Shown: in pieces, positions 944 to 39,687 of the stretch | How positions within the stretch are numbered: position 1 is the first letter of the stretch | Layout: the number at the start of each line of letters is the position of its first letter | Origin: Candidatus Oxydemutatoraceae bacterium | GTDB taxonomy: Bacteria; Pseudomonadota; Gammaproteobacteria; Poriferisulfidales; Oxydemutatoraceae | DNA: 64,000 nucleotides | Direction: 5' to 3' | NCBI GenBank assembly: GCA_965220085.1 | Contig: CBDCOZ010000003.1 | Coordinates: 704,001 to 768,000 of the forward strand | Translations under genes and position numbers: made by a program | Notes under the pieces: model-generated | Database searches by the model: none | What the model saw: the letters and a program-made list of their open reading frames with translations, nothing else | Told to the model about the DNA's origin: nothing

Positions 944-1556
944 CTATCGCAACGGGCCTTCAAGGAAGACGCGCAAGCGCAGGCGCGGGCCCGGAGTGCA
1001 GTTCGGATAGTCGCCGAAGTGCGAAGCCGGATTGCATACGCATTCGGTTTCGCCGTTGAGGTTGTGGGCCGGCGGATAGCTGCCGGGGACTGTGCCACTG
1101 AGGCTACAGTCTGCAACAAAGGCGATTCCGCTGTTTTGGCGGACACGAGGATGGTCCTCCGCTCTTGGAAAAACTGGCGGGTTGCCATATAAGTCTGTGC
1201 AAGTGGGGACGTTTCCGTGTAAGAAGCAGCTATCACTTGCACCTCCTAATATACTGTGTGACGGGATGAGGCAAGACAACTCTAACGACGCAACGCTTGA
1301 CCAGGACCAACCCGCGTCTTCACAGTCCTCCAGAATTGGAATTAGGGCATCGTCAAAGCAACCAGTGTTGGGCAAAGCAGGATCGCTTTGATCCGTAACT
1401 CGCGTTTGCCCTTCGGGGCATTCGGTTTGCGCGTATGCGCTGTTTGCAAATGTGCAAGCAAGTATTACCGCCGCGCAAATTCTAAGCGTAGCGGGGGGGG
1501 GGGGGGGGGGTAGCGGTATTAAAAATTTGTTGGTTCATGATATTTCGTTGATTCAT
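944..1556 (-). CDS. LEGPLR-tail secreted Cys-rich protein 1, frameshifted at poly-C (18 C)
   Basis: AGGAG RBS, ATG 1556 MNQRNIMNQQIFNTATPPPPP then stop; removing one C joins ATLRICAAVILACTFANSAYA|QTECPEGQ to ORF 944..1375 ending PRLRLRVFLEGPLR. Confidence 0.8.
1493..1510 (-). repeat. poly-C tract (18) in signal-peptide coding region
   Basis: G x18 on + strand. Confidence 0.9.
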
Positions 1557-1589
1557 GGTTTTACTCCTGATAAATATATCTGTACAAGC

Positions 1590-1756
1590 AGTATCGCACC
1601 ATACTATAAATTCAGTCATTCACAAGTGCAACCGTTGCTCTCCTCCTCATGGATTTCGTTGCACTGTATCATAAATTCCGTCATTTGCAAGTTTAACTAT
1701 TATTCTCCTCCTATGGGATTCTGTCGCACTATATCACAAGTTCAATCATTTGCAAG
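1590..1756 (-). promoter_or_regulatory. Three tandem sigma70-like promoter units (TTGCAA-N16-TATAGT-like), ~65 bp period
   Basis: Minus strand ttgcaaatgattgaacttgtgatatagt / ttgcaaatgacggaatttatgatacagt / ttgtgaatgactgaatttatagtatggt. Confidence 0.55.
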
Positions 1757-1953
1757 CGCTTTTTTGTCAAGCCTCAACGACCGCCTTCGGCGACCGGTTG
1801 TGTCGTCGTTGCGAGGTGTCGCTATTGCCTGTCGGCCTTTGTTGAAGCCAAGAATCCGGAATGTTTCCGGCATGATTCGGTCATTTGCAAGCGCCTTTTC
1901 ACCCCTTTGTGCGCCCCCTAATATTCCCCGTTCTCCGCCGCAGGATATTCGCG

Positions 1954-3293
1954 CTATCGCAACGGGCCTTCAAGGAAAAGGCGCAACCGCAAGCGCAGGT
2001 ATGGCTGGCGAACGCATTCCGTCGCACCATTCAGATTCGCCCTCGCCGGAATCATGCCCTCCCCGCAGTTGAAAACATACGGCTCCCGAACCGGAATCAT
2101 GTTAAACGCCGCCCTGATTCGCGCGATAATTTCATTGTCGCTTGCCCCGAGGCGCAGCGAAAAGGGAATCCCGTTGTCCCGGAACACTTGTATCAAAATA
2201 AATTCGTTGCCAACTTCGACTTGCAACTGCTCGCGGCTGACTTGACTGATGGCTTCGTTAATATAGTCCGGCTCGCCGTTGTATCGCCCCAAAACCGCAT
2301 TCGCATAAGCCAGCGCCACAGTGCCAAGAGTGTCGCTTCGTCGGAAATTTATCAACTGAAAGCCGTCATAAAGATTTTGCACCAGCGGCGGCAGAGCCGG
2401 CGGAAAGGCGTATTCCTCGCCGAACACATCATCGCACAGAGGCATGTCCGTGCCCGTGCTCGCGATAACAAAGCAGCCGTCATAATCCGTATCCGTCTCG
2501 TCCGAAGTCAGCGGGATTTCGCATTTGATGGGGGTGGTGGTAGTGGAAATAGTCCACCCTTGACTCGTGCATATGCCAACCGCCTCCCGCTGGGCGCGGG
2601 TCAAAGTCGGCGCGGCAACGCAGTCCGGCCATTCGCCGATGTGCGAGTCCAAGTCGCAGGAGCATTCGGTTTCGCCGTTGAGGTTATGGTCGGGCGGATA
2701 GCCGCCGGGGACATTTCCGTCCCGGTCGCAGTTCGCCACAAAAGAATCCCCGCCGGACCCATCAGCTTTAACATTGGTGTGGTCCGCCGCTTTCGGAAAA
2801 ACTGGCGGGTCGCCAAACATATCTGTGCATAACAAAACACTTCTTCCCTCTATGTCGCATATGTCCCCGCTATTCAAGCTGGACCCTGTATACAAAGCGA
2901 CCCCAATCTGACAACCCAATTCTCCAGACGAGATAAACACACTCGTCGAATCCCTGCCCAACCAACCCGCACCTTCACAGTCCTTCAGAATTTCGATTGC
3001 GGCATCGGTAAAACAATTCGTGGCATTGGAGAGGGAGTCTCGGGTTACCCTCGTGACTCGCGTTTCCCCTTCTTCGCAGACATCGTGGCAGGAGCCGAGT
3101 TCGGAAACCATCTCCTGTCCCGCCAGACAGGTTTGCGCTGACGCGTTGTTCGCGGCGAATACAAAAGTAAATACGAGCGCTATCGCCGCACAAATTCGGC
3201 TATTGCGGAGGGAGCACCGCCTGCCCGTTAGGGGGGGGGGGGGGGGGTAGAGGTATTAAAAGTTCTCTGGTTCATGCCATTTTGTCGTTTCAT
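1954..3293 (-). CDS. LEGPLR-tail secreted Cys-rich protein 2, frameshifted at poly-C (17 C)
   Basis: RBS AGGAG, ATG 3293 MKRQNGMNQRTFNTSTPPPPP*; adding one C gives LTGRRCSLRNSRICAAIALVFTFVFAANNASA|QTCLAGQEM in frame with ORF 1954..3111 ending YLRLRLRLFLEGPLR. Confidence 0.8.
3231..3247 (-). repeat. poly-C tract (17) in signal-peptide coding region
   Basis: G x17 on + strand. Confidence 0.9.
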
Positions 3294-3534
3294 AGTATTA
3301 CTCCTGATAAATGTAGTTGTACGGTATATGTACACAAGCTAGTGAGGCACAGTAATAAGAGGCACAAACGGTATGAGAGCACAAACAACTCAGTTGTGTG
3401 TCCTTGATTGTTGTTTGTGCTCCGCAAACTGCTTGCAGATTGTTTGATGTTGCACTATGCCACAGAGTGTCAGTCATTTGCAAATACCTTTGTATCCTGC
3501 GCCTGTGAAGGCTGTTATACGATAAATGTCGCAC

Positions 3535-3666
3535 TATATCACAAGTTCAATCATTTGCAAGCGCCTTTTCACCCCCTTTGTGCGCCCCCTAATATTCCCC
3601 GTTCTCCGTCGTAGGGTACTCGCACTATCGCAACGGCCCTTCAAGGAAAAGGCGCAACCGCAAGGC
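3535..3666 (-). repeat. Orphan LEGPLR tail + hairpin + promoter element heading the left cluster
   Basis: Encodes ALRLRLFLEGPLR* (stop 3625-3627) and the same downstream ~70 bp as 1880-1953, then TTGCAA...TATAGT. Confidence 0.8.
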
Positions 3667-3828
3667 TGTTGCCACAGGCAACGGTGGCACAGCGACCCTT
3701 CCGATGCGGGCGTGGGAAACCGATCCATGAAGCCATCCATCAAAGAGGCGCGCGGCGCGGTGGGTTGTCCGCATTGCCAGCAAAGGAAGGCTACCCGCAA
3801 GGGCAAGCGACTCGGTGATGACCGGCGC

Positions 3829-3996
3829 AAAGCATGCGATACGGAGTTTGCTGTGCGCCGATTCGTTGCGCGGAACAATTTCGCGCGAGGCGCAAAGCAT
3901 GTGATACGGAGTTTGTTGTGCGCCGACACGTGCTTTCGCATGCCACCCCACTCCATTCGAAAGCATGTGATACGGAGTTTGTTGTGCGCCGACACG
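3829..3996 (+). repeat. Three 37-bp direct repeats with unique 28/29-bp spacers
   Basis: aaagcatg(t/c)gatacggagtttg(t/c)tgtgcgccga(ca/tt)cg at 3829, 3894, 3960. Confidence 0.85.
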
Positions 3997-4016
3997 GCAA
4001 ACGATACCGCCGCAGG

Positions 4017-4925
4017 TCATCGGTTATGGCCGGAAGTAATCCCGCGTCTGAGGTTTGAAAACCACCAGAGGGTTATCACGCCGAACCAGATTGCGGCGCC
4101 CCAGCCGATAAACCCGTCGTAATTGCCGATCAGAAATGCGAAATCCGAGTCGGGATTGGCAGCGGTGAACTTTTTATTCAGTTTGACTACGATGATCCAA
4201 CCGCAGTGGACGCCGATGCACGGCATGATGTGGTTTGCCGATAACCTGACAAGCGCAAGAAAAGCGCCCGCCAGGAACAGGGCGGTTGCCGTCTGAATCG
4301 CATCATAAAACCCGTGCTTTTCGCGAATGCCTTCGGCAAGGTTCCATATCCCGGCATACCAAGGCGCGGTCGTGTCGGGCGGCGATTCTTGGATCGCAAT
4401 AAAATGCAGCGCGGCGAACAGCGCGGACGGCAGCAACACGGCCATGACTGTCTGGCCCTTTTTGACGAAGCCGTCCATCAACGCGCCGCGGAAGAAGCAT
4501 TCCTCGATGGTCGCTATCAGCAAAGCGGCCAGAGCTATGCGCGGCAGAGCGGACAGGATTTGGAAGTCTTTGTCCGGGGCGTTCAGGCCTATCATCCAAA
4601 AGAGCATTGCAAGCGTCAGAGCAATGAGGGTGCCGGCGAAGAGACCGGTCAAAAACAAACGCAACGGTTTTGGTTCCGTCTTGATAAAGCCGAACGTTTT
4701 TAACAACGGCAGCTTGCGCGCCTTGAGCGCAAAAACAACAAAGAGGATAATGGACAAGATGATGAGAACTTTTGCGAAGCGGCGAAACTTAATCAGCGAC
4801 TCCAACGCCGTCCATTCGTACAAAGGCCGGGATATTGCGGCGGCGGCGAGGATGGCGATAGCCGTCGTAAAGACCAGAATCAGAAAATGTTTCATGTTGT
4901 GACGAACATTATATCTATCCGACAA
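4017..4925 (-). CDS. CPBP (CAAX/Abi) family intramembrane glutamic protease
   Basis: Multiple TM segments; motifs EECFFRG, SALFAALHF, GVHCGW. Confidence 0.85.
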   Translation of the reverse strand: MSDRYNVRHNMKHFLILVFTTAIAILAAAAISRPLYEWTALESLIKFRRFAKVLIILSIILFVVFALKARKLPLLKTFGFIKTEPKPLRLFLTGLFAGTLIALTLAMLFWMIGLNAPDKDFQILSALPRIALAALLIATIEECFFRGALMDGFVKKGQTVMAVLLPSALFAALHFIAIQESPPDTTAPWYAGIWNLAEGIREKHGFYDAIQTATALFLAGAFLALVRLSANHIMPCIGVHCGWIIVVKLNKKFTAANPDSDFAFLIGNYDGFIGWGAAIWFGVITLWWFSNLRRGITSGHNR

Positions 4926-4992
4926 ATGCGCGCGCGCTCGCGCGGTGTCGCTCGCGCGGTTTGCCCGTCGCTTGGGTTAAGATAGGGGGCAT

Positions 4993-5078
4993 GCGGAAGT
5001 GGCGGAATCGGTAGACGCGCCGGCTTTAGGCGCCGGTGGGCTAGTCCTGTGAGAGTTCGAGTCTCTCCTTCCGCACCA
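4993..5078 (+). tRNA. tRNA-Leu(TAG)
   Basis: GCGGAAG acceptor, anticodon arm ccggc-TTTAGGC-gccgg, long variable arm, TTCGA, CCA end; upstream of tig. Confidence 0.95.
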
Positions 5079-5188
5079 GTTTTTGTGATGCGAGTTACGC
5101 TTTTTATGAGTTTGTTCACAATCGTTATGGCCTGATTGGGTATAATAACCCGCAATATACTATCCCGTTATTCATTCAAGAAGTATTG

Positions 5189-6448
5189 ATGGAAGTTTCA
5201 GTAGAAGATGTAGGCAGTCTGGGGAAGAAGTTGCATATCAGGGTTCCGTTTGCGGAAGTCCGACCGAGATTGAGCGAAGAAGCGCAGAGGATGAGCCGCA
5301 AGGCGCGAGTCGATGGCTTTCGTCCGGGCAAGGCGCCGTTGCGCGTCATAGAACAACGCTTTGGGCGGCAGATTTTTCAGGATGTCGCGAAGGATGTGAT
5401 TCGCGACTCTTATCTGCAGGCCGTGCGCAGCCATAAGTTTCGCCCGACAGGCAATCCGGATTTTGAAGATGTTTCAATGACGCCCGGCGAGGACATACAA
5501 TTTACGGCGAGCATAGAGTTGTACCCGCAGTTTCAAGTCGCGCCGATGGCCGGACATAAAATTGAAAAGCCGGTAGCCGAAGTGGCAGAACAAGATATCC
5601 AAAACATGATAGAACGGGTGAGAAAAAGCCACACGCGGTGGAGCGCTGTCGAGCGGCCGGCCCGCGAGGGCGATCGCCTGACCATACATCTTCAAGACGG
5701 CAACGAGCAGGGGAAAGATCCGCAGGTGGTTCTGGGCGGCGAAGGCGCGGTGGCGGCGGCTTTTACAAAACATCTGGCGGGGGCGCGCAACGGAGAAACG
5801 CGCACGGTTCGCTTGCAGCCCGATGAGACAGGCAAAGAAACGGAATACGAGGCGGAGGTCAAAGCGATTGAGGAGGGGGCTTTGCCGGAATTGGATGATG
5901 ACTTCTTTGCGCTATGCGGCGCAGACGGATTGGACGGTTTGCGGGAGATGCTTGCGAGCGGGATGGAAAAACAATTAAAGAGCAGTTTGGAAAGTATCGC
6001 CAAGACAAAGGTCATGAATGCCTTGTTGGAGCGGAATCCGATAGAATTACCCCGCAGTTTGATTGCGCAAGAGATAGAAGCGATGAGGAATGATTCTGTG
6101 AAACGCTTGAATTTGACCGCCGAGCAGGTTGCCGGCCTATCGGATGACTTGTATCGCGACACGGCGGAACGGCGGGTGAGGCTGAGCTTGCTGTTAAATC
6201 AATTTGCGAGGCAGCATCAACTGGCGGCGGAGCAACAGGCTGTCGAGGCCAAACTGGACGCTATCACGGCGGCTTATGAGGATGCCGAGAATATCAAGCA
6301 ACATTATCGCAATAATTCCGAGGCGCGCTCTGCGCTGGAGGCGATGGCGCTTGAAGATAAGGTGATTGCGGGCATATTGAGCGAGGCCGATGTGTTTGAG
6401 AAGCATTATTCCTTTGATGAAATCCTCGAGCAGGCGGCGGCGCATTAA
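5189..6448 (+). CDS. tig: Trigger factor
   Basis: DGFRPGKAP ribosome-binding motif; precedes clpP. Confidence 0.95.
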   Translation: MEVSVEDVGSLGKKLHIRVPFAEVRPRLSEEAQRMSRKARVDGFRPGKAPLRVIEQRFGRQIFQDVAKDVIRDSYLQAVRSHKFRPTGNPDFEDVSMTPGEDIQFTASIELYPQFQVAPMAGHKIEKPVAEVAEQDIQNMIERVRKSHTRWSAVERPAREGDRLTIHLQDGNEQGKDPQVVLGGEGAVAAAFTKHLAGARNGETRTVRLQPDETGKETEYEAEVKAIEEGALPELDDDFFALCGADGLDGLREMLASGMEKQLKSSLESIAKTKVMNALLERNPIELPRSLIAQEIEAMRNDSVKRLNLTAEQVAGLSDDLYRDTAERRVRLSLLLNQFARQHQLAAEQQAVEAKLDAITAAYEDAENIKQHYRNNSEARSALEAMALEDKVIAGILSEADVFEKHYSFDEILEQAAAH

Positions 6449-6464
6449 CAGAGCATAAGGAAAT

Positions 6465-7070
6465 ATGAACGACAGTCCCGAAATACAAGCACAGTTAATC
6501 CCGATGGTCATCGAGCAAACCTCGCGAGGCGAGCGCGCGTATGACATTTACTCAAGGCTCTTAAAGGAGCGATTGATTTTTATTGTCGGGCCGATCGATG
6601 ATCATATGGCGAATCTCGTTGTTGCGCAGATATTGTTTCTTGAATCGGAAAATCCGAACAAGGATATTTCTCTCTATATCAATTCTCCGGGCGGCTCGGT
6701 GTCCGCGGGGCTCGCAATTTACGATACGATGCAATTCACGACGCCCGATGTCAGCACGATGTGTATCGGGCAAGCCGCCAGCATGGGGGCGGTTTTGTTG
6801 GCCGGCGGCAGACGAGGCAAGCGCTATGCGTTGCCGCATTCGAGGGTTCTGATTCATCAGCCCTTGGGCGGTTTTCAAGGACAGGCGACCGACATTGAAA
6901 TTCATACCAAGGAGATTCTCAAGGTCAGGGAGACGCTCAATACGATATTGGCTTCCCACACCGGTCAAGCGATTGAGACGATTTTGGAGGATACCGAGCG
7001 CGATCGCTTTATGGGGGCGCGGGAAGCATGCGACTACGGCATCATAGATGAGATCATGTCAAAGCGGTAA
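6465..7070 (+). CDS. clpP: Clp protease proteolytic subunit
   Basis: [46 protein letters not shown]. Confidence 0.98.
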
Positions 7071-7173
7071 CGGGAATCGCGGATAGTCCAATGAAACAAA
7101 CGCCATATCACATAGTTCGCTTGCAAAGTTCATGGCTTTATGCTTCCATAGCTTCTCAACAGGGTAAATCCGA

Positions 7174-8454
7174 GTGACTAACGGCAAAGATAACCAAGGG
7201 CAAGGCGAGAAATTACTCCATTGCTCTTTCTGTGGCAAGAGTCAACGCGAGGTTCGCAAGTTGATTGCCGGTCCTTCCATTTTCATTTGCAACGAATGCA
7301 TTGATTTGTGCAATGACGTTCTGGCCGAGGAATATAACGAAGAAGGCGTTGCGGGCGATATGCATATCGCCAATCCGCAGACGATACATCGGGCGCTTGA
7401 CGAATATGTGATCGGCCAAGACCATGCCAAAAAGGTATTGTCGGTCTCGGTGCACAACCATTACAAACGTTTGCAAAGCGCAAAAGACAGCCGCGACGAT
7501 GTGGAGATTTCCAAAAGCAATATTCTTTTGATCGGCCCGACCGGTTGCGGCAAAACATTGCTCGCGCAGACCTTGGCAAAAACACTCAATGTGCCTTTTA
7601 CGATTGCCGATGCGACGACCCTGACCGAAGCGGGGTATGTCGGAGAGGATGTCGAAAATATTATTCAGCGGTTGTTGCAGACCTGCGACTACGATGTCGA
7701 AAAAGCGCAGCGCGGCATCGTCTATATCGACGAGATAGACAAGATTTCCCGCAAATCGGACAACCCGTCGATTACCCGGGACGTGTCGGGCGAGGGGGTG
7801 CAGCAGGCTCTGCTTAAGTTGATCGAAGGGACGGTTGCGTCGGTTCCCCCGCACGGCGGGCGCAAACATCCGCAGCAAGAATTTTTGCAGGTAGATACGA
7901 GCAATATCCTGTTCATTTGCAGCGGCGCCTTTGCCGGTTTGCACAAGGTGGTTCAACAGCGAACCGAGAAAGGCAGCATCGGGTTTTCCGCCGACATAAA
8001 ATCGATTGACGATAGCAAGTCTGTGACGGATATGTTGCGGATGGCAGAAGCGGAAGATCTCATTCGCTACGGTTTGATACCCGAGTTTGTCGGGCGTCTT
8101 TCGGTATCCGCGGTGCTGGATGAGTTGGATCAAGATGCGCTGATTACTATTTTGACCGAGCCTCGCAACGCATTGGTCAAACAATACCGGCATCTTTTTC
8201 GCATGGAAGGCGTCGAACTGGAATTCCAGCACGACGCATTGCTGTCTATCGCGCAGCGGGCGATGAAAAAGAAAGTCGGCGCGCGCGGCTTGCGCGGCAT
8301 CATAGAGGATGTGTTGCTCGATACGATGTACGAGTTGCCGGCCTTATCCAATGTGGAAAAAGTGATTGTTGACAAAGGGGCCGTTGAGAAAAATGGCGCG
8401 CCTATCATGGTTTACAAAGGCGATGACGAAGAGACATACAACAAAGCGGGCTAA
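7174..8454 (+). CDS. clpX: Clp protease ATP-binding subunit
   Basis: CSFCGK zinc finger, [25 protein letters not shown] loop. Confidence 0.98.
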
Positions 8455-8519
8455 GCTTCTCTTGACTATTCGGATTATTCCCATACATAAAGGCTATACA
8501 TTTTCGGAGGCATAGATCT

Positions 8520-14935: not shown

Positions 14936-14940
14936 TCCGC

Positions 14941-30156: not shown

Positions 30157-30741
30157 ATGCCGACCAGAATCCTTGTTCACGCCTTGTGCCTGCTGCCTAT
30201 GATATGGCTGCTCGCCTTGGCATACCGCTCCGGTCTCGGCGCCAATCCGATCGAATACATCACGCGCTACAGCGGCGATTGGACATTGCGCATGCTTTTG
30301 ATCACGCTGACATTCAGGCCTGTCGCGCACATCTTGCGGCGGCCGTTTTTGTTACGCTATCGTCGCGCGGCAGGCCTGTATACTTTTGCCTATGCTTTCA
30401 GCCACTTCACAACCTATCTGTGGCTCGATCAATTCTTTGATTGGTTGTCTATCGTTGAGGATATCGCCGAACGGCCTTTCATACTCGCCGGGTTTACTTC
30501 TTTCGTTCTGATGATACCGCTTGCGCTGACATCCAACGATTGGTCCGTACGGTTGCTACAGAACCGCTGGAAAACACTGCATCGTCTGGTTTATCTGATA
30601 GCGATCGTGGGGCTCGTCCATTATTGGTGGCTGGTGCGGGCCGACTTTTTGAAAGCGTCGGTCTACCTCGTCATGTTGACGATCTTACTCGGCTACAGGG
30701 CATATTTTTCGGTCTTCGTGCGGGAAATTCTCAAGCGGTGA
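30157..30741 (+). CDS. msrQ: Methionine sulfoxide reductase heme-binding subunit
   Basis: GANP, RRAAGLY, PLALTS, WKTLHRLVY..HY.W. Confidence 0.9.
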   Translation: MPTRILVHALCLLPMIWLLALAYRSGLGANPIEYITRYSGDWTLRMLLITLTFRPVAHILRRPFLLRYRRAAGLYTFAYAFSHFTTYLWLDQFFDWLSIVEDIAERPFILAGFTSFVLMIPLALTSNDWSVRLLQNRWKTLHRLVYLIAIVGLVHYWWLVRADFLKASVYLVMLTILLGYRAYFSVFVREILKR

Positions 30742-30993
30742 TAAACGGCTTCCCCTATTTTGCGGTGTCCTCGCTTATACCCTTGCTGGCCCTGCGGCTG
30801 CGCCTTTTCCTTCAAGATCCTTGCAATAATGCGGGTATCCTGCGGCAGAGCAGGGGAGTATTACGGGGCGCAGACAAGGGGAGCGAGGCAGGATATACAG
30901 GCACTTGCAAATGATTGACACTGTGGTATAGTGCGCTAAATGAGGGAAACAATGAACAATTCAACTCTTGTAAATGACTCGCACCTTGTGGCA
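30622..30993 (+). repeat. 372-bp direct repeat copy 1 (msrQ 3' end + degenerate tail/hairpin + promoters)
   Basis: Near-identical to 34886..35257. Confidence 0.9.
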
Positions 30994-31150
30994 CGGCTAT
31001 GTACCACAAACAACATTCATATGTGTGCAAACGATACGAGACCACAAACGATATTTAATCGCTTGTGCTCCATAAACTGTTTGCGGATTGTTTATAATGT
31101 GACTGGTTGCACAACTGTATTCACTAGCTCAGGCGATAAGGAGTAATGCC

Positions 31151-31781
31151 ATGAAACGAAAGATTTATAATACTACCCCCCCCCCCCCCCCCCCGCTGTG
31201 TAAATAAGGGGATTGCGGGCACTTGGCTGTATCGCCTCGCCGCCCGCTTTCTGCAAGCACTTCGCCCCTTCCCGCACTGGCGGGTAACACTAACCCGGCG
31301 TAGCCTCCGAGCACTGGTTCTGCTCGCCCTGCTCACCCTCTGCACTCAAGCGCAGGCGGCCGCGCCGATGATTGATCTGGACAGCATCATAAAAGTTCCC
31401 ATCAACGCAACCGCAGAAAATCCGTACTTCTTCAAAGCATCCGACTTTCCTTTTAGAGATGCCGATGGCGATGAACTGGAAATCGTGCACATACTCGGTG
31501 CCCCTGATGAGTCACAAGGCATATTGAGGGTGGGATCCACCGTTCTGACCGATCAGAATACGGCAGGTGCTGGTTTTGATGTGGCGGTGACCGACATCGG
31601 CACCATAAGCTACTATCCGATAGCGGGCCAATCCCCCAGAGTACACTCCGCCAGCTTTTTGTACTGGGTAACTGCCGGCGGCGACCTGTCCGATACTGGT
31701 GGTAGCATACGCATAGACCTGGTGCCACCACCGACCCTGCGGTTGCGCTTGCGCCTTTTCCTTGAGGGCCCGTTGCGGTAG
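31151..31781 (+). CDS. LEGPLR-tail secreted protein 3 (single cadherin/Ig-like domain), frameshifted at poly-C (19 C)
   Basis: ATG 31151 MKRKIYNTTPPPPPPLCK*; one C fewer gives RCVNKG...HWRVTLTRRSLRALVLLALLTLCTQAQA|AAPM in frame with ORF 31368..31781 ending LRLRLRLFLEGPLR. Confidence 0.8.
31176..31194 (+). repeat. poly-C tract (19)
   Basis: C x19. Confidence 0.9.
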
Positions 31782-31921
31782 TGCGTAGCTACAGCGAGGA
31801 GAGTGTTATGAGGCGCGCAAGAGGATGGAACAGGATACCAAGATACTTATGGACGTCTTTGTGGCGGAAGCGCTCATTGCGCAACCGCCTTCGCGAGACC
31901 CAAACCATAAGGAGAAATGCG

Positions 31922-33532
31922 ATGAACTACGAAATTTTTGATACTGCCCCCCGGCACCGGCAGGCAACGATGACGCGGCGTAGCTTCTGGTTGCCAGTTC
32001 TGCTTGCCCTGTTCGCTGTCTGCGCTCAGGCGCAGGCGCAAAATGCCACCGGCATACCGGCGGTCACCTACGCCAGCGGCATAATCGCTCCCACCGAAGA
32101 TTCCGCCATCACCGCCAACGGCGGCAGCGGTTCCACCGCCATAGCCGACACCGATGGCTTGGGCACTTTCAGTTGGCAGTGGAGTGCGGCCGATACCAAC
32201 GGCGGCGACTACGCCGACATCGCCATGGCGACCAATGCCGCATTCACTCCCGGCGATGATGAGGTGGGCAAGTTCCTGCGGGTCTGCGCATCTTTCAGAG
32301 ATAACGCCGGCAACAACGAGGAGCGATGCCTGCCGATAGCCACCGCCGTGGCCAACATCAACGACAAGCCGGTGCCCGTCGCCAACACAATTTCGGTGAG
32401 CACCACCGCCGATGCCGACAATCCTTATGTCTTCTCTGCGGATGACTTTCCATTCACGGATGTGGACGGCGACATGCTGGCGGGCATCGAAATAGCCGCC
32501 CTGCCAGGAAGAGATTCTACAGCCGGGCCAGGCAGTCCGGGCACCCTGGCATTGAACGGAACGGCCTTGACCGCTGTCCCCGCAAGCACCATCACCGTAG
32601 CCCAACTGGAGGCCGGCGCTCTGACCTATTACCCGCCAGAGGGCGAGCAACCCACCAACCCCAATGACCCCTTTGCCAGATTAGCCTTCTTCGGCTTTGA
32701 TGTGGTGGACGATGGCAGTGATGGCAACACCAACAATGTCAGCAATGTGGGCAGAACCATAGACATACGACTGGTGTCGGTGAATCAGACTGCCGCCAGC
32801 GGCAGACCCAGAATAGTAGTGCTGAATGTTCCCACCGATATCCACACCCACGCTGAGGGCACCCAACTGAGAGCCGACACCAGAGACATCGTTGAACCCA
32901 ACGGCATAGACCGCAGCACTCTGGAGTGGCAATGGCAGTTATCCTCTGTCGGCGATGGTGTCTTTGCCGACATAAGCGGCGCCACCGGAGGCACATTCAC
33001 CCCGGGCCATGCCCATGTGGGCATGCACATCCGCGTCTGCGCCAGTTTTATGGACAATCACGCCATGCCGGAGACTGTGGAAGACCTGTGCTCCGCCTCT
33101 ATCCGGGTGACTAATGCCAACGATGCCCCGGTGGCGCAAGACCACGCTATAAATGTGTCTGTGGATGCCACCATGGCCAACCCCTACGCTTTCAGCACAG
33201 ACGACTTTCCCTTTGACGATGAGGACGATGACAATCTGGCCAGTGTCATTCTGGAATCGTTGCCGCAATCCGGCGCCTTGCGCAACGGCTCCGCCGCCGC
33301 CGCGGTCGGCGATATCATAGCGGCCGATGCTATAGACGATCTGACGTACTATCCGGCCGCCGAGCAGAATGTCCAGACCGGCTACGCAAGATTCGACTTC
33401 AAGGTGACCGACGATGGCAGCGATGGCAGCGACAACAGGACCAGTGCCAACACCGCCGCCATCACCATCAATCTGGTGCCGGCCAACCTGCGCCTGCGCT
33501 TGCGCCTCTTCCTTGAGGGCCCGTTGCGGTAG
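31922..33532 (+). CDS. LEGPLR-tail secreted protein 4 (Ig-like and cadherin-like domains)
   Basis: AGGAG RBS; MNYEIFDTAP...TRRSFWLPVLLALFAVCAQAQA; SWQWS/EWQWQ Ig-like and DFPF.D.D.D.L cadherin-like repeats; tail NLRLRLRLFLEGPLR. Confidence 0.88.
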   Translation: MNYEIFDTAPRHRQATMTRRSFWLPVLLALFAVCAQAQAQNATGIPAVTYASGIIAPTEDSAITANGGSGSTAIADTDGLGTFSWQWSAADTNGGDYADIAMATNAAFTPGDDEVGKFLRVCASFRDNAGNNEERCLPIATAVANINDKPVPVANTISVSTTADADNPYVFSADDFPFTDVDGDMLAGIEIAALPGRDSTAGPGSPGTLALNGTALTAVPASTITVAQLEAGALTYYPPEGEQPTNPNDPFARLAFFGFDVVDDGSDGNTNNVSNVGRTIDIRLVSVNQTAASGRPRIVVLNVPTDIHTHAEGTQLRADTRDIVEPNGIDRSTLEWQWQLSSVGDGVFADISGATGGTFTPGHAHVGMHIRVCASFMDNHAMPETVEDLCSASIRVTNANDAPVAQDHAINVSVDATMANPYAFSTDDFPFDDEDDDNLASVILESLPQSGALRNGSAAAAVGDIIAADAIDDLTYYPAAEQNVQTGYARFDFKVTDDGSDGSDNRTSANTAAITINLVPANLRLRLRLFLEGPLR

Positions 33533-33671
33533 TGCGTAGCCGCGGAGAAGGATAGTTATGAGGCGCACAAGAGGATGGAACAGGATATCAGGATACTTGC
33601 GGATGGCTTTGTGGCGGAAGCGCTCACTGCGCAACCGCATTCACGAGATACAAACCATAAGGAGAAATGCG

Positions 33672-34595
33672 ATGCACTGCCAAATTTTTGATACTGCCCT
33701 CCGGCACTGGCGGGCAACGATGACGCGGCGCAACCTCTGGTCATTGGTTCTGCTCGCCCTGCTCGCTGTCTGCGGTCAGGCGCAGGCGCAAACCGCATGT
33801 CCCCAAGGGCAAACGCGAGTCACGAGTTCGGTCCTTCTGTCCACCGGTTGCTTTGACGATGCCTTAATCCCGATTCTGAATGACTGCAAAAAAGCGGGAT
33901 GGAGAGGCGAGGACGCGGAGGGAGTGTTTCTTAGTCTCGGGGAACTGGCTTGCGAGATTCCTTCGAGTGAAGCAGGTGGCTCCAGTGCGCAATCGTGCTA
34001 CATTGTTTCGGCAATCGGGAGCACCCCGCTCTGCGCAACTATGTATGGCGACCCGCCGGTTTTTCCAAAAGCGGCGGAATATCCTCATGTCCGCCCCGGA
34101 AGCGGACGCACTTTTACCGCAAACTGCGACAATTCGCCCGCCGGCACAACAGTCCCCGGCGGTTATCCGCCGAACCACAACCTCAACGGCGAAACCGAAT
34201 GCTCCTGCGATTTGGATTCGCACATCGGCACATGGCCGAACTGCGTTGCCACGCCGGATTTGACCCGCGCCCAACGGGAGGGGATTGGCACATGCGCGAG
34301 TCGGTGGAGTGTTTCCACCGCCACCGCTTCTATCAAATGCGAAATCCCGCTGACTTCGGGCGGGACGAATTATGACGGTTGCTTTTTTGGCGAGGGCCCG
34401 CCGCGGTGCGCCGATGTGTTCGGCGAAGAATATGCCTTTCCCGATGAAACGCTTCCGGTTCAGGAGCGATATGTTTTCAACTGCGGGGAGGGCATGATTC
34501 CGGCAGGTGCGAATCTGAATGGCGCGACGGAATGCGTGCGCCAACCGTACTTGCGGCTACGGTTGCGTCTTTTCCTTGAGGGCCCGTTGCGGTAG
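33672..34595 (+). CDS. LEGPLR-tail secreted Cys-rich protein 5
   Basis: MHCQIFDTAL...TRRNLWSLVLLALLAVCGQAQA; two NLNG(E/A)TEC-ending modules; tail YLRLRLRLFLEGPLR. Confidence 0.88.
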   Translation: MHCQIFDTALRHWRATMTRRNLWSLVLLALLAVCGQAQAQTACPQGQTRVTSSVLLSTGCFDDALIPILNDCKKAGWRGEDAEGVFLSLGELACEIPSSEAGGSSAQSCYIVSAIGSTPLCATMYGDPPVFPKAAEYPHVRPGSGRTFTANCDNSPAGTTVPGGYPPNHNLNGETECSCDLDSHIGTWPNCVATPDLTRAQREGIGTCASRWSVSTATASIKCEIPLTSGGTNYDGCFFGEGPPRCADVFGEEYAFPDETLPVQERYVFNCGEGMIPAGANLNGATECVRQPYLRLRLRLFLEGPLR

Positions 34596-34770
34596 CGCGA
34601 GTGACCGGCGGCGGAGCAGGGGAGTGTCGTGGGGTGTGCAAGGGTGAGGCAGGTACGGAGTATGTACACAAACAACATTTAATGAGGCACGGTAGTAAGA
34701 GCACAGTGATAAGAGCACAAACAATACTTAATTGTTTGTGGCTTCCTGAGTTGTTTGCGGATTGTTAATT

Positions 34771-34884
34771 GTTTGCGGAGTTTGAAGCGGGTTGTTGATG
34801 GCCGATACGCGGACATTCAATAATTGTCGGATAAAGTATCTGCTATGGTGTAACACCCAACGGCCGCGCTATGGACTGGAACTT
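34771..34884 (+). mobile_element. Degenerate fragment of IS481 transposase 3' region
   Basis: gtttgcggagtttgaagcggg...tatggtgtaacacccaacggccgcgctatgga aligns by eye to 54452-54560. Confidence 0.7.
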
Positions 34885-34885
34885 C

Positions 34886-35257
34886 TATTGGGGGCTGGTA
34901 CGGGCCGATTTTTTGAAAGCGTCGGTCTACCTCGTCATGTTGACAATCTTACTCGGCTACAGGGCATATTTTTCGGTCTTCGTGCGGGAAATTCTCAAGC
35001 GGTGATAAACGGCTTCCCCTATTTTGCAGTGTCCTCGCTTGTGCCCTTGCCGCCCCTGCGCCTGCGCTTTTTCCTTCAAGATCCTTGCAATAATGCGAGT
35101 ATCCTGCGGCAGAGCAGGGGAGTATTACGGGGCGCAGACAAGGGGAGCGAGGCAGGATACCAAGGCACTTGCAAATGACTGACACTGTGGTATAGTGCGC
35201 TAAATGAGGGAAACAATGGACAATTCAACTCTTGTAAATGACTCGCACCTTGTGGCA
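34886..35257 (+). repeat. 372-bp direct repeat copy 2 (msrQ 3' fragment to 35005 + degenerate tail/hairpin + promoters)
   Basis: Near-identical to 30622..30993. Confidence 0.9.
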
Positions 35258-35376
35258 GAGTGCGCCAAATGAGGGAAACAATGGACAACTCAACTTTTAT
35301 AAATGACTCGCACCTTGTGGCAGAGTACACAGCACTAGGCAATCCACAAACAGTTTGTGCCTCACTAAGAAGCCAC

Positions 35377-35513
35377 AAACAACGAATCAAGGACACACAA
35401 ACAACAAATCGAAGATACACAAACAACGAATCAAGGACACACAAACAACGAAGTTGTTTGTGCTTCTTATCATGTGCTTCTTATCATGTGCTTCTTATCA
35501 TGTGCCTCTCATC
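35377..35513 (+). repeat. Short tandem repeats in 5' leader: 22-bp x3.5 and 14-bp x3-4
   Basis: caaacaacgaatcaaggacaca units; tgtgcttcttatca units. Confidence 0.8.
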
Positions 35514-35574
35514 ACTGTGTACATATACCGTGCAACTACATTCACTAGGCACATGCCATAAGGAGTAATAGATT

Positions 35575-37003
35575 ATGAATAGACAAAACTTTAATACTAC
35601 CCCCCCCCCCCCCCCCCCCCCCTCGCTATGTAAATAAGGGGATTGCGGGCACTTGGCTGTATCGCCTCGCCGCCCGCTTTCTGCAAGTACTTCGCTCCTT
35701 CCCACACTGGCGGGTAACACTAACCCGGCTTAGCCTCCGGTCGCTTATTCTGTCGGTCCTGTTTGCCGTCTGCACACCGGCCCAGTCGCACAGCGCCCAT
35801 CCGCCTGGCAACGCAGACCCGACCACGGTTGGTCTGGCCAAACCGTTAGCCCTGAGTAACACCATATTAGTGTTGCAAGATGCTAACGCCGACAACCCGT
35901 ACACTTTCAAGCGGGCCGACTTCGGCTATTCGGATAGCGACCGAGACAGCCTGCAACACATAACCATAAAGAGCCTGCCGGCTCTTGGCACATTGCAGGT
36001 GGACGGCACCGCCGCCACTGAGGAACAGACTGTGGCGCCCGCCGACTTCGGCACCATCACCTGGTATCCGCCGGCAAATGCGTCGGCGAAGATTAGCTAC
36101 ACCAGTTTCACCTACAGCGTCACCGCCGGCAACGAGGAATCCAATTTAGACGCCACCGTGACCATAAATCTTTTATCAACCGAGCAAGTCCCTGCCACCG
36201 GCGCGCCCGAACTGACGAACTCGGAAACTTTCAGCAGTCAGACCACATACAACGATGGCAATAGGCTCCTGATCAGGATTGGGTCTTCGCCTGTCGACCT
36301 CAACGGCATAAACTACGATACTCTGGAATATATATACCAACAGTCCCCCGCCGCAGACGGCACATACGCCACTTTCAGAGGTCCGCTCGGTATAAGAGTG
36401 CGTAATAGCGAAGTATTCATAATCCGGCAGTCCAATGTGGGCCAATACATCCGCGTATGCGTGACCTTTATGGATCTGCACGCCACCCCCAACAGCGAGG
36501 GGCCGCTGTGCTCCGCCGGCGCCCTTGTAACAAATGTGAGCGACCAGCCCGTCGGCGGTGACAGCGTCGTTGAGGTGCCGGTAACTGCCAGTTCCGCCGA
36601 CCCGCACCGCTTTGTGCGGGCGGACTTTCCCTTCAGCGATGCGGATGGCGACACCATCAACGGCATACGCATAACCGCCCTGCCCGCGACGGGCACTTTG
36701 GCGCTGGCGGGCGATGCCGCTTTCACGATAAGCACAGGCACCGAGTTGACACTGGATCAGTTGGATACCTTGGCATACTATCCGGATGCCAATGCTGCCG
36801 TTGGCGCGGGCTATGCGACATTCGCCTACAGAGTGCGGGATACCGGCGATGTCAGCGCCACAGTCCGAAGGTGCACTCCAACGGGCGGGTGTAGATCGAT
36901 CCCCGGCAGCACCAACGAGGCCGCAGCCGATTCCACCCTCACCATAGACTTGGGGGTGATTGCCTTGCGCTTGCGTCTTTTTCTGGAGGGCCCGTTGCGA
37001 TGA
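35575..37003 (+). CDS. LEGPLR-tail secreted protein 6 (cadherin/Ig-like), frameshifted at poly-C (23 C)
   Basis: ATG 35575 MNRQNFNTTPPPPPPPSLCK*; one C fewer joins RYVNKG...HWRVTLTRLSLRSLILSVLFAVC to ORF 35870..37003 ending ALRLRLFLEGPLR. Confidence 0.8.
35600..35622 (+). repeat. poly-C tract (23)
   Basis: C x23. Confidence 0.9.
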
Positions 37004-37046
37004 TGGGAAACACACTTTATGTACAAACCACATTAGGAGTAATACT

Positions 37047-38033
37047 ATGAATCAACAAATTTCTAATACTGCCCCGCATTGGCGGGCAACGATGACGTGG
37101 CGTAGCCTCCGGTTGCCGGTTCTGCTCGCCATGCTCGCCGTCTGCGCTCAGGCGCAAACGCAAACTTGTCCGGTGGGGCAGGAGGATGTCGGCGGCGTTT
37201 GCCATGCTGTTTGTGCCGAAGGGCAGGCGCGAGTCACGAGCAGTGTGGTTGAAGTCGGAAGCGGCCCCGCTACCGGGTGCTTTTCCGATGTATTAGCCTC
37301 GTATGCGAAGGCTTGCGAAAACATGGGATGGTTAGCCGATTCGCTCGGGACGTTTCTGCACCTCGGAGAACTGGTTTGCGGGATCCCCTCTCAGTTGTAT
37401 CCTGATACTGGTCGTATTCAGTCGGGTTCCTCGTGCTTTCTGGCAGGAAGCGCCGACCGGCTGTGTACGGACATGTATGGTGATCCGCCTGTTTTTCCCA
37501 AAGCGGAAGACCACCCTAATGTTAATCAATTTAGCGAGAGGGGGGGAAATCACCTCAGCGATTCCTTTGTGGCAAATTGTGCTCGGGGCGGGAATGTTCC
37601 CGGCGGCTATCCGCCGGGTCACAACCTCAACGGCGAAACCGAATGCACCTGCGATTTGGACTCGCACATCGGCACATGGCCGGACTGCACGGCCTTTCCG
37701 ACCGGCTTAACCTCCGCCGAGCGGGAGGGGGTTCGCACATGTGCGAATCAAGGGTGGGATGTTTCCACCGGCACCGCCTTCTTCAAATGCGACATCCCGC
37801 TGATCTCCGGCGAGGGTACTTTTGACGAGTGCTTTTTCGGTCCGGGTACGCCGCAGTGCGCGGATGTATTCGGCGCGGAGTTTGCCTTCCCGGAACAGGA
37901 GGATTCGGTTCGGTATGTTTTCAGTTGCGGGGCGGGCATGTTTCCGGCGGGGGCGAATACGAATGGCGCAACGGAATGTACCGCCCACCTGCGCTTGCGG
38001 TTGCGCCTTTTTCTGGAGGGCCCGTTGCGATGA
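37047..38033 (+). CDS. LEGPLR-tail secreted Cys-rich protein 7
   Basis: AGGAG RBS; MNQQISNTAPHWRATMTWRSLRLPVLLAMLAVCAQAQ; two Cys modules; tail HLRLRLRLFLEGPLR. Confidence 0.88.
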   Translation: MNQQISNTAPHWRATMTWRSLRLPVLLAMLAVCAQAQTQTCPVGQEDVGGVCHAVCAEGQARVTSSVVEVGSGPATGCFSDVLASYAKACENMGWLADSLGTFLHLGELVCGIPSQLYPDTGRIQSGSSCFLAGSADRLCTDMYGDPPVFPKAEDHPNVNQFSERGGNHLSDSFVANCARGGNVPGGYPPGHNLNGETECTCDLDSHIGTWPDCTAFPTGLTSAEREGVRTCANQGWDVSTGTAFFKCDIPLISGEGTFDECFFGPGTPQCADVFGAEFAFPEQEDSVRYVFSCGAGMFPAGANTNGATECTAHLRLRLRLFLEGPLR

Positions 38034-38076
38034 TGGGAAACACACTTTATGTACAAACCACATTAGGAGTAATACT

Positions 38077-39687
38077 ATGAATCAACAAATTTCTAATACT
38101 GCCCCGCATTGGCGGGCAACGATGACGTGGCGTAGCCTCCGGTTGCCGGTTCTGCTCGCCATGCTCGCCGTCTGCACTCAGGCGCAGGCGCAGGGCAATG
38201 CCACCGGCATGCCGGAAGTTACCTACGCCAGCGGCATAATGGTTCCCACCGAAGACTCCGCCATCACCGCAAACAAGGGCAACATACAAGACCCGGACAA
38301 CACTCCGACGACCGCCATCGGCGCCATCAGTTGGCAATGGAGCGCGGCCGATACCGATGGCGGCAACTACACCGACATAGCCATGGCGACCAATGACGCC
38401 TTTACTCCGGGCGATGACGAGGTGGGCAAGTTCCTGCAGGTCTGCGCATCTTTCACGGATAACGCCAGCAACAACGAGAAGCGCTGCCTGCAGATAGCCA
38501 CCGCCGTTGCCAACATCAACGACAAGCCGGTGCCTATCGCCAACACAATTTCGGTGAGCACCGCCGCCGATGCCGACAATCCCTACGTCTTCTCCGCGGA
38601 TGACTTTCCATTCACCGATGCGGACGACGACATGCTGGCGGGCATCAATTTAGTCACCCTGCCAGGAAGAGATCCTACAGCCGGGCCAGGCAGTCCGGGC
38701 ACCATGGCATTGAACGGAACGGCCTTGACCGCTGTCCCCGCAAGCACCATCACCGTAGCCCAACTGGAGGCCGGCGCCCTGACCTATTACCCGCCGCCGG
38801 GCGAGCAACCCACCGACCCCGATGCCCTCTTTCTCAGATTCGCCTTCTTCAACTTTGATGTGACGGACGATGGCAGCGATGGCAACACCAACAATGCCAG
38901 CAATGATGGCCAAACCATAGAGATACGACTGGTATCGGTGGCTCAGACTGCCGTCAGCGGCAGACCCAGAATAATAGTGGATGGCGCTCACGCCAGGGTC
39001 CGCACCCACGCTGAGGGCTCCCTGCTACAAGCCGACACCATTGGCATCGTTGAACCCAACGGCATAAACCGCAGCACTCTGGAGTGGCAGTGGCAGTCAT
39101 CCTCTGCCAGCGATGGCGCTTTCGCCGACATAAGCGGCGCCACCGAGGGCACATTCACCCCGGGCCAGGTCCATGTGGGCATGCACATCCGCGTCTGCGC
39201 CAGTTTTATGGACAATCACCCAACCCCGGAGACTGTGGAGGGCCTGTGCTCCCCCTCCATCCGGGTGACCGAGGCCAATGTTGCCCCCATCAGCGACGAT
39301 GCATCTGTGAGCGTATCCCCCGCCGCAACCGCGGCTCAGCCATACCGCTTCAAGGTCTCTGACTTCCCGTTCAGGGACACCGTCGGCGACCGCCTGCTCG
39401 GAATAACCATAGTTTCCACCGTAGAATCCGGCAAGGGCACGCTCCGCTTTTCGAGTCTGGAGATTACCCTCAGAGACAACCTAGACACCTTCGTCATAGA
39501 CGGGTCTCGAATACCAGAGTTCACCTACTACCCCCCTGCGGGTAGCGGTATCACCTCCGACTTCGCCACTTTCAGATTCAGAGTAAGCGATGGCAAAGCG
39601 GAAAGCGCAATCCACGCCATGACCATACATCTGGCGGAGCACCTGCGGTTGCGCTTGCGCCTTTTCCTTGAGGGCCCGTTGCGGTAG
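38077..39687 (+). CDS. LEGPLR-tail secreted protein 8 (Ig-like and cadherin-like domains)
   Basis: Leader nearly identical to protein 7; body paralogous to protein 4 except the last domain; tail HLRLRLRLFLEGPLR. Confidence 0.88.
   Translation: MNQQISNTAPHWRATMTWRSLRLPVLLAMLAVCTQAQAQGNATGMPEVTYASGIMVPTEDSAITANKGNIQDPDNTPTTAIGAISWQWSAADTDGGNYTDIAMATNDAFTPGDDEVGKFLQVCASFTDNASNNEKRCLQIATAVANINDKPVPIANTISVSTAADADNPYVFSADDFPFTDADDDMLAGINLVTLPGRDPTAGPGSPGTMALNGTALTAVPASTITVAQLEAGALTYYPPPGEQPTDPDALFLRFAFFNFDVTDDGSDGNTNNASNDGQTIEIRLVSVAQTAVSGRPRIIVDGAHARVRTHAEGSLLQADTIGIVEPNGINRSTLEWQWQSSSASDGAFADISGATEGTFTPGQVHVGMHIRVCASFMDNHPTPETVEGLCSPSIRVTEANVAPISDDASVSVSPAATAAQPYRFKVSDFPFRDTVGDRLLGITIVSTVESGKGTLRFSSLEITLRDNLDTFVIDGSRIPEFTYYPPAGSGITSDFATFRFRVSDGKAESAIHAMTIHLAEHLRLRLRLFLEGPLR

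Follow-up and report, generated by a model that had tools for sequence, protein, structure and literature searches.

A C-terminal peptide shared by some 190 secreted proteins of a symbiont genome is homologous to strand 1 of a domain otherwise encoded by a single separate gene

We describe a 14-residue C-terminal tail shared by secreted proteins of a Candidatus Oxydemutatoraceae bacterium, as found in a 64-kb window, that is, the whole stretch of DNA analyzed (C3:704001-768000 of genome G000, which comprises 2,492,841 bases in 3 contigs). An earlier note on this DNA had reported eight genes ending in the same peptide, with stops at 944 and 1954 on the minus strand and at 31781, 33532, 34595, 37003, 38033, and 39687 on the plus strand, and all eight indeed close frames of the form ...(L)RLRL[RL][LV]FLEGPLR-stop. 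A ninth copy, absent from that list, ends at 3625 on the minus strand and closes a 132-codon frame without a signal peptide. A degenerate DNA pattern for FLEGP matched the window nine times, against 0.07 matches expected, and nine matches were reached in none of 100 shuffles. The tail-bearing frames span 132 to 627 codons, and scans with NCBIfam and Pfam divided their bodies, which had been called unrelated, into two kinds, namely, Cys-rich proteins without any family and proteins with weak matches to Cadherin_4, Cadherin_5, or ZirU (for gene G, a Cadherin_5 match of 26.0 bits, under the cut-off of 26.5). The nine copies, designated A to I, are arranged as follows, lengths of homopolymers being given in nucleotides (nt).

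944..1556, minus strand: gene A, Cys-rich secreted protein; tail and stop at 944-988; leader ATG at about 1556 or 1538, in another frame than the body
1493..1510, minus strand: homopolymer of gene A, 18 nt, poly-C on the coding strand, between leader and signal peptide
1954..3293, minus strand: gene B, larger Cys-rich secreted protein; tail and stop at 1954-1998; leader ATG at about 3293, out of frame with the body
3231..3247, minus strand: homopolymer tract of gene B, 17 nt
3625..4023, minus strand: copy C, the 132-codon frame without signal peptide; tail and stop at 3625-3669
31151..31781, plus strand: gene D, small cadherin-like secreted protein; leader ATG at about 31151, out of frame; signal peptide from GTG 31284; tail and stop at 31737-31781
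31176..31194, plus strand: poly-C tract of gene D, 19 nt
31922..33532, plus strand: gene E, cadherin/immunoglobulin (Ig)-like secreted protein; in-frame leader MNYEIFDT at 31922; signal-peptide Met at 31970; tail and stop at 33488-33532
33672..34595, plus strand: gene F, Cys-rich secreted protein; leader at 33672; signal-peptide Met at 33720; tail and stop at 34551-34595
35575..37003, plus strand: gene G, cadherin-like secreted protein; leader ATG at about 35575, out of frame; signal peptide from GTG 35714; tail and stop at 36959-37003
35600..35622, plus strand: poly-C tract of gene G, 23 nt
37047..38033, plus strand: gene H, Cys-rich secreted protein; leader at 37047; signal-peptide Met at 37092; tail and stop at 37989-38033
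38077..39687, plus strand: gene I, cadherin/Ig-like secreted protein; leader at 38077; signal-peptide Met at 38122; tail and stop at 39643-39687

Copy C is probably a duplicated gene-end fragment, since the DNA past its stop nearly matches that past the stop of gene B. As for the 5' ends, the motif M-x3-[IFT]-[FYS]-[ND]-T had been read as an extended signal peptide. It is instead a short leader, followed by a poly-C tract or the remnant of one and then by an ordinary Sec signal peptide. Leader and body share a frame in genes E, F, H, and I; in genes A, B, D, and G, as assembled, they are in different frames.

The tail extends far beyond the window. Six-frame translation of G000 gave 218 in-frame FLEGP motifs, 213 of which are followed by L-R-stop; three others stand at the N terminus, after the signal peptide, and the remaining two carry a Gln and a Trp, respectively, at the position of the stop. 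The genome-wide search that the note had called for thus yields 213 C-terminal and 3 N-terminal copies in 2.49 Mb. Stop-to-stop frames of at least 100 codons carry 188 of the 213 tails and together span 487,797 nt (19.6% of the genome), a slight overestimate in that such frames begin upstream of the true start codons. The largest of these tail-bearing proteins, the giants, reach 15,193 codons. By a simple heuristic, 176 of the 188 frames contain a signal-peptide-like segment, and the 12 that do not lie at contig ends or look truncated at their 5' ends.

Several copies depart from this arrangement. The other 25 of the 213 tails end frames of fewer than 100 codons, several of them in tandem gene-end arrays with a period of about 156 to 168 bp (e.g., window 3625-4023 on the minus strand, G000:C3:513720-514187, and 908934-909356), and recombination between conserved gene ends is a likely cause of these tandem copies. 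The three N-terminal copies (G000:C1:23864-25292, C1:36354-38001, and C3:1171406-1173515) belong to paralogues with one shared signal peptide, about 25 residues past which the tag is found, followed by a Gly/Ser linker and then by PPC repeats (two proteins) or a weak trypsin-like domain (one protein), indicating that the tag does not need a free C terminus. Finally, at G000:C3:629118-629934, the tail stop is replaced by Gln and the frame continues for 161 codons into a ferredoxin-like-looking gene, which probably reflects a recent stop-codon loss or a pseudogene.

The 213 copies allowed us to separate conservation of the peptide from conservation of the DNA. Over the last ten codons, entropy was zero at every position where a change would alter the residue, while third positions and the first position of Leu codons varied by 0.5 to 1.4 bits. 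The residues F, L, E, G, P, L, and R are unchanged in the last eight codons of all copies, the most conserved part of the tail being F-L-E-G-P, ahead of the Leu/Arg run, and all three stop codons are used (TAG in 134 copies, TAA in 51, and TGA in 28). The synonymous variation seen in the window therefore holds across the whole genome, as changes are concentrated at synonymous sites. In addition, the relative G011 encodes the same ending peptide with different codons. Because the residues are invariant while synonymous sites and stops vary, we conclude that the tail peptide itself is under selection.

The flanking DNA is conserved to some extent as well. The six bases past the stop (mostly CGCGAG, e.g., window 31782-31787) are kept about as well as the synonymous sites, and the DNA downstream of the tail genes falls into a few shared classes. 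Together with the conserved 5' leaders and the short frames in tandem arrays, these features are what one would expect if the gene end were a DNA-level handle for recombination or gene conversion that shuffles bodies between expression sites, the peptide having no function. We consider this highly improbable, given that variation sits at synonymous sites under unchanged residues with three stops in use, that G011 spells the same peptide differently, and that three copies are N terminal. The codon-position pattern led us to reject a DNA-repeat reading altogether; DNA homology may aid shuffling but cannot explain that pattern.

The tail corresponds to no sorting signal that we searched for, in line with the earlier note. 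None of the nine window proteins matched an NCBIfam or Pfam sorting-signal model at an E value of 1 or less. The tripartite organization of C-terminal signals, which consists of a motif, a transmembrane helix, and a basic cluster, is not found in a 14-residue tail that ends in Arg and contains no hydrophobic helix. The signal recognized by the β-barrel assembly machinery (BAM) is a C-terminal aromatic residue closing an alternating hydrophobic strand, and here all 213 copies end in Arg, as the exclusion of a BAM signal had anticipated. Full-text searches of the literature collection covered here, for the tail and for motifs of the domain, returned no paper.

A candidate partner came from the relatives. 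Under a strict pattern, the tail occurs in 5 of 41 related genomes, with just 1 or 2 copies in three genomes of genus g3. In these three genomes, a giant gene ending in ...FLEGPFR-stop is followed, at most about 30 nt further on, by a gene for a secreted protein of 276 to 287 residues. G000 encodes exactly one homologue of this downstream protein (tblastn E values of 1e-20 to 1e-22), located outside the window at G000:C3:469169-470137; it has 322 residues, its own signal peptide, and no Pfam or NCBIfam match, and is hereafter called the acceptor. It is the only significant six-frame match in G000 to a profile of acceptors (E value of 4e-67) and to a profile of the whole domain described below (E value of 8e-33).

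In another relative, G001, this domain is found whole, over about 265 residues, at the C termini of giant open reading frames (ORFs; eight matches read). Its elements follow one another in the order ..RV[YFWV]LQGA[YL].., about 50 residues, VDWVLVELR, HHRNHLSVMS, and a dockerin-like GDxDxNGxID pair. Stand-alone acceptors start, once past the signal peptide, exactly behind the first strand, at an MxTxL..IPxxDPY segment, and the elements of the remainder (MxTxL..LPxxQPY, VDWVLVELR, RAAFLL.DG.VVD, and HRNHL) are all present in the G000 and g3 acceptors. Conversely, the tail, R-[LIV]-F-L-E-G-P-L, fits the motif of the first strand, [KRT]-h-[FYLVM]-L-[EQ]-G-[PAS]-[YFL], of which L and G never vary among the 33 whole domains aligned. 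On the whole-domain profile of 288 positions, the G000 acceptor covers positions 71 to 274 and the tails align at positions 61 to 77, although the latter alignments are weak, the tails being short (E values of about 8 to 10).

A profile search of 1.84 billion representative proteins retrieved 5367 relatives at an E value of 0.001 or less. Among the best 150 of these matches, which we surveyed for the strand motif, 50 are short proteins with DWVL within their first 115 residues, and 41 of the 50, several N-terminally truncated entries included, lack any strand motif; the other 9 are small whole domains or match the motif only loosely. The remaining 100 comprise 73 with the strict motif, 10 with the loose motif, 11 with a variant spelling recognized by eye, and 6 without DWVL. 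The resemblance to a KVFLEGPY-type first strand suggested in the earlier note is thus verified: the motif is the near-universal strand 1 of a domain present in 5367 proteins, and tail and acceptor occupy complementary coordinates on its profile. The β-module itself (KVFLEGPY - DWVLVELR - HRNHL) has no Pfam or NCBIfam model. Among named GTDB records, full-length acceptor matches come solely from metagenome-assembled genomes labeled "uncultured candidatus Porisulfidus sp.," while partial matches, from DWVL onwards, come from records of Bacteroidota, Ignavibacteriota, Chlorobiota, Calditrichota, and similar groups. The second half of the domain resembles a dockerin, with Dockerin_1 (PF00404; cut-off of 22.9 bits) exceeded in three of seven library proteins (P0060, 31.2 bits; P0035, 33.2 bits; P0126, 23.8 bits), and the alignment consensus shows that most stand-alone acceptors keep dockerin-like calcium-loop signatures. 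In G000, then, the strand ends 213 ORFs right at the stop, and another gene, complete with a signal peptide, encodes the remainder; with strand and remainder on separate polypeptides, the G000 system is a split derivative and not an ordinary member of the domain family.

We then compared the distribution of tails and acceptors. With a looser tail pattern (R/K-h-x-L-[EQ]-G-[PA]-x-x-stop, both strands), for which reversed-pattern controls gave 0 to 5 matches per genome, we counted 216 copies in G000 (genus g1), 15 in G002, 36 in G007, 16 in G011, 16 in G015, and 12 in G017 (all g3), and 29 in G016, 17 in G018, 7 in G003, and 5 in G012 (all g4); counts elsewhere among the relatives were at control level. 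The end of the tail differs among genera (PLR, P[LF][RQ], AL[EQN], and AVIP), with quite different codons, and other genera replace the L/R alternation by V/K/I. In g4, the tail ends mostly in ..FLEGAL[EQN]-stop, in g2 there are 2 or 3 copies of a variant ..FLEGAVIP-stop, and in g5 three looser patterns gave tails at control level only. Of 18 genomes in the family, 13 gave matches in a sequence search with the acceptor and 16 gave matches to the domain with the acceptor profile; none of 22 genomes from other families gave a match in either search, and none of them had tails above control level. All 10 genomes with at least five tails have an acceptor, and G008 and G014, without an acceptor match, have no tails, counts that are not independent in that the genomes are kin. 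Within the family, the domain thus exists in three states, namely, as an intact part of the cargo (G001), divided between neighboring genes (g3), and as one acceptor for many donors (G000). The giants of G001 also share repeat modules (30 to 37% identity) with the tail-bearing giants of G000. In g2 (G006 and G010), three or four tandem acceptor genes lie in the conserved locus described below, versus only 2 or 3 tails, and g2 donors may use further tail variants.

The AlphaFold model of the whole domain of G001 was confident (predicted local distance difference test [pLDDT], 84.8; predicted template modeling score [pTM], 0.86), including its N-terminal strand, and its nine best PDB matches in Foldseek, although weak, were all X-module-dockerin (XDoc) chains of type II cohesin-dockerin complexes. 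We then cofolded residues 31 to 322 of the G000 acceptor, with an alignment of 40 stand-alone acceptors, and the last 40 residues of gene D, with the nine window tails. This pair scored 0.85, versus 0.00 for the best of three controls; in the calibration, which applies only roughly because we supplied our own alignments, 58 of 80 solved complexes and 2 of 110 mismatched pairs scored that high. Agreement between runs was at least 96% of contacts, with a partner pLDDT of at least 69. All of the approximately 137 contacts were made by partner residues 24 to 40, that is, the tail, and they fell on several strands of the acceptor (residues 106-113, 129-141, 172-177, 213-221, and 242-247). The pLDDT of the acceptor was 67 to 68 with the tail, compared with 46 to 50 with unrelated partners. 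In the models, therefore, the cofolding check that the note had suggested passes its controls when the tail is paired with an acceptor lacking that strand.

Could the tail act on its own? Its L-R-L-R-L-R-L alternation creates one hydrophobic and one cationic face, and alternating hydrophobic/cationic peptides can bind lipopolysaccharide. The tail could accordingly be an amphipathic strand that binds lipid A, the outer membrane, or an unnamed transporter, its likeness to strand 1 being a remnant of truncated domains, and the genomes that have acceptors without detectable tails would then reflect the lack of an obligate coupling. However, the most conserved part of the tail is FLEGP, precisely the part that is invariant in whole domains, and the alternation is what other genera exchange for V/K/I. 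Furthermore, acceptor-less genomes have no tails above control level, the g3 acceptor gene directly follows a tail-bearing gene, and the cofolding controls scored 0.00. Autonomous action of the tail thus appears quite improbable.

Taken together, these data show a genuine tail that occurs only on secreted proteins, is under selection as a peptide, and is a homologue of strand 1 of a domain, the rest of which is encoded by a single gene. We think it probable that the tail is the detached strand 1 of an X-module-type Ig-like β-sandwich followed by a dockerin, that the remainder is the separate acceptor, and that the two complement each other's fold in trans. The donor-strand docking onto a shared partner proposed in the earlier note is thereby favored by sequence and models alike, through a single acceptor minus the strand, whole and split domains in relatives, and the cofolding result. 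Donor and acceptor would both be exported by Sec, and the alternating Leu/Arg strand and FLEG turn of the donor would insert into the strand-deficient sandwich of the acceptor and complete its fold, an insertion that can be likened to the donor-strand complementation of pilins. Some 190 tail-bearing proteins (cadherin-like adhesins, Cys-rich proteins, and giants) would in this way be clipped to a common adaptor, and the three N-terminally tagged proteins would dock alike. Our best reading of sequences and models is thus one socket for about 190 plugs, many of which may be phase variable.

What the acceptor does with its cargo is less certain, and its gene neighborhood offers some indications. 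In G000, G006, G007, G011, and G015, we found a conserved order consisting of a gsp-type cluster, a rhodanese gene, the acceptor gene(s), a gene for a giant protein of 1369 to 3633 residues, and a rhombosortase gene. The rhombosortase model TIGR03902 (cut-off of 84 bits) scored 96 bits in G000, 144 bits in G007, and 139 bits in G015, the three genomes scanned. By eye, the giant neighbor ends in all five genomes in a run of 5 to 10 Gly, a hydrophobic stretch, and an Arg-rich cluster, and a large neighbor in G013 has a similar end, with a Gly run, a transmembrane stretch, and an Arg-rich segment. The giant neighbor of G000 (C3:470148-474257; 1369 residues) ends in eight Gly, a transmembrane stretch, and RRQRRYE, and the rhombosortase gene (474930-475607) adjoins it; this protein has no Pfam family, and an Atlas look-up gave only scores below 0.8, to generic Ig/cadherin-like clusters. 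For the giant neighbor, the choice-of-anchor U model gave 30.3 bits, with a cut-off of 32. In G000, giant neighbor and rhombosortase look like a GlyGly-CTERM pair missed by the curated model. In Vibrio cholerae, according to PMC6219818, rhombosortase cleaves GlyGly-CTERM signals, and the protein is lipid modified, exported by the type II system, and retained at the surface. By way of the type II cluster, the giant protein, and the rhombosortase in its neighborhood, the adaptor might link cargo to the cell surface: the acceptor could tie cargo to a surface-anchored giant or could hand it to type II secretion.

As to other export routes, G000 encodes two secretins (PF00263), one of them in the gsp cluster (133 bits), and one TolC-type OEP protein. 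We found no autotransporter barrel (PF03797) and no usher (PF00577) in this genome. Autotransporter barrels above the cut-off were likewise absent from all 13 genomes searched of the window's family, f1, while the sister family f2 has 32, 9, 8, and 1 of them in the four f2 genomes searched (G019, G022, and G024 included), some on giant ORFs. The tail/dockerin-type system may thus have replaced autotransporters as a display device.

With neither PF03797 nor PF00577 in G000, the type II system is the obvious route for Sec-exported proteins, and the acceptor gene lies about 3 kb downstream of the gsp cluster in a conserved neighborhood. The acceptor might be a periplasmic chaperone or targeting adaptor, comparable to PapD when it caps the grooves of pilins, that would bind the tail transiently, deliver the cargo to the type II or another exporter, and then let go; the tail would in this case serve as an export signal and not as a lasting anchor. 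One acceptor gene for about 190 donors suits a recycling factor better than a stoichiometric anchor, and the dockerin half of the G000 acceptor is degenerate, without a Pfam match. Gene neighborhood is nevertheless all that ties the domain to the type II machinery, and most stand-alone acceptors keep the calcium-loop signatures. The G001 domain, being permanently fused to its cargo, fits a structural end-piece better, and the very large predicted interface, with a tail buried among strands in about 137 contacts, suggests a stable product. For these reasons, we regard a transient role as rather unlikely.

Poly-C tracts like those in the window precede many donors across the genome. Of the 90 G/C homopolymers of at least 9 nt in G000, 82 are located at the 5' end of an ORF that carries the tail, the poly-C tracts there reaching 28 nt. 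A crude frame test placed leader and body in the same frame in 20 of these 82 ORFs and in different frames in 52, and the other 10 lack a leader ATG; homopolymer lengths in the assembly may, however, be wrong. No reads of a Hi-C run aligned to window 30900-39800, and contigs from the other sequencing run break at repeats and at the tract near window 35589-35633. Judged by their sequence, the surface genes with poly-C tracts are probably phase variable, and together they look like one of the largest slippage-controlled surface gene sets. Under fold complementation in trans, the tracts before about 80 donors would control which of the plugs are in competition for the socket at any one moment.

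Several observations weigh against fold complementation in trans or parts of it. The XDoc matches of the whole domain are weak, with E values of 0.01 to 0.24, none at or below 0.001, probabilities of 0.77 to 0.99, and template modeling scores, normalized by target length, of 0.36 to 0.63. Modeled alone with AlphaFold2, the acceptor has a mean pLDDT of 68.7 and a pTM of 0.73 with core strands at 80 to 90, and such confident core strands suggest that it may not strictly need a donor strand; XDoc chains again come first in Foldseek with this model, but not significantly (E values of 0.48 to 1.0; probabilities of 0.14 to 0.21). Halves of a split domain tend to pass cofolding through their likeness to contiguous homologues, and the result hence means that tail and acceptor make up a complete domain, from which it does not follow that they meet in the cell. 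The Dockerin_1 score stays below the cut-off for the G001 whole domain (18.9 bits) and the g3 acceptor (15.8 bits), the G000 acceptor has no match, and cohesin (PF00963) was found in 0 of the 21 genomes searched, G000 included. The GlyGly-CTERM model TIGR03501 gave no match in G000 at an E value of 1 or less. G004, G005, G009, and G013 have acceptor homologues but tails at control level with the patterns used, 52 of the 82 donors with a tract have leader and body in different frames as assembled, and a single acceptor gene stands against about 190 donors.

The closest structural parallel is provided by clostridial scaffoldins, whose XDoc dyads bind type II cohesins of cell-surface anchoring proteins (2b59, 5k39, 4wi0, and 5m0y; PMC5141474). 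The two systems have in common a β-sandwich module followed by a calcium-type dockerin at the C terminus of secreted proteins, and the role of the XDoc dyad, to attach a secreted assembly to the cell surface, is similar to the one considered here. They differ by the weakness of the structural match (E value of 0.01 or worse), by the lack of cohesin in the 21 genomes, by the Gram-negative host, and by a sandwich that is split over two polypeptides with one acceptor for about 190 donors. To our knowledge, no split XDoc has been described.

In chaperone-usher pili and in the type V pili of Bacteroidota, a strand-deficient fold is completed by a strand of another subunit. Here too, an Ig-like fold minus one strand would be completed by a strand of alternating hydrophobic residues, through a contact predicted to be extensive. 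Since the completion of an incomplete Ig-like fold by a donated strand is known from pili, the principle is not new. However, pilus subunits have both a groove and a donor strand and polymerize, whereas the present arrangement would be hub and spoke; G000 has no usher, the fold family is unrelated, and the donor is strand 1 at the C terminus of the cargo (at the N terminus in three proteins).

With the sorting systems LPXTG/sortase, PEP-CTERM/exosortase, GlyGly-CTERM/rhombosortase (PMC3237569 and PMC6219818), and MYXO-CTERM, the tail shares a short C-terminal tag on unrelated secreted proteins and a many-to-one relation to a partner gene, which itself lies in a rhombosortase/type II neighborhood. 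In contrast to those signals, the tail has neither a transmembrane helix nor a basic cluster, its partner is the remainder of a domain and not an enzyme, and it presumably works at the N terminus as well. The C-terminal domain of type IX secretion is complete, comprises 70 to 100 residues, and is removed by a sortase-like protease. Like the tail, it is carried at the C terminus by many secreted or surface proteins, and records of Bacteroidota and allies commonly contain the present domain in its whole form; the tail, however, has 14 residues, and its host is a gammaproteobacterium-like symbiont. In the man-made pairs SpyTag/SpyCatcher (from a split CnaB2) and GFP11/GFP1-10, a strand peptide binds the strand-deleted remainder, with SpyTag forming an isopeptide bond. 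They likewise use a strand of 11 to 16 residues from a β-rich domain that can be fused to arbitrary cargo at either end, whereas the tail system is natural, involves about a tenth of the genome's genes, and gives no indication of covalent chemistry. We found no prior description in the literature of a strand tail serving as a genome-wide address tag.

The bacterial sorting tags known so far are recognized by enzymes or transporters, while this tag appears to be the missing piece of its receptor, a logic that would explain why unrelated proteins carry one and the same 14-residue ending. It would apply to some 190 genes, which take up about 20% of the streamlined genome of this symbiont, and it would assign a role to a large nameless domain family (5367 representative proteins) that is common in Bacteroidota and allies. 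The system would also be a case of domain fission followed by one-to-many expansion, and a natural short peptide that completes a small secreted domain would be a candidate tool for protein ligation or display. We tentatively consider it possible, though somewhat doubtful, that the whole amounts to a tag-and-catcher system at the scale of the proteome, evolved by gene fission, in which the acceptor is an obligatory adaptor, some 190 proteins are exported by the type II system and displayed on a lipid-anchored giant scaffold, and poly-C slippage varies the plugs. If true, an address label that is a piece of its receptor's own fold would represent a new class of protein sorting, and the series from the whole domain through adjacent split genes to one socket would show the system evolving by gene fission. 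The link to an unusually large and probably phase-variable surface gene set bears on how sponge symbionts handle host recognition: through about 80 slipping poly-C tracts and a limited number of sockets, the symbiont would show its sponge host a combinatorially variable coat.

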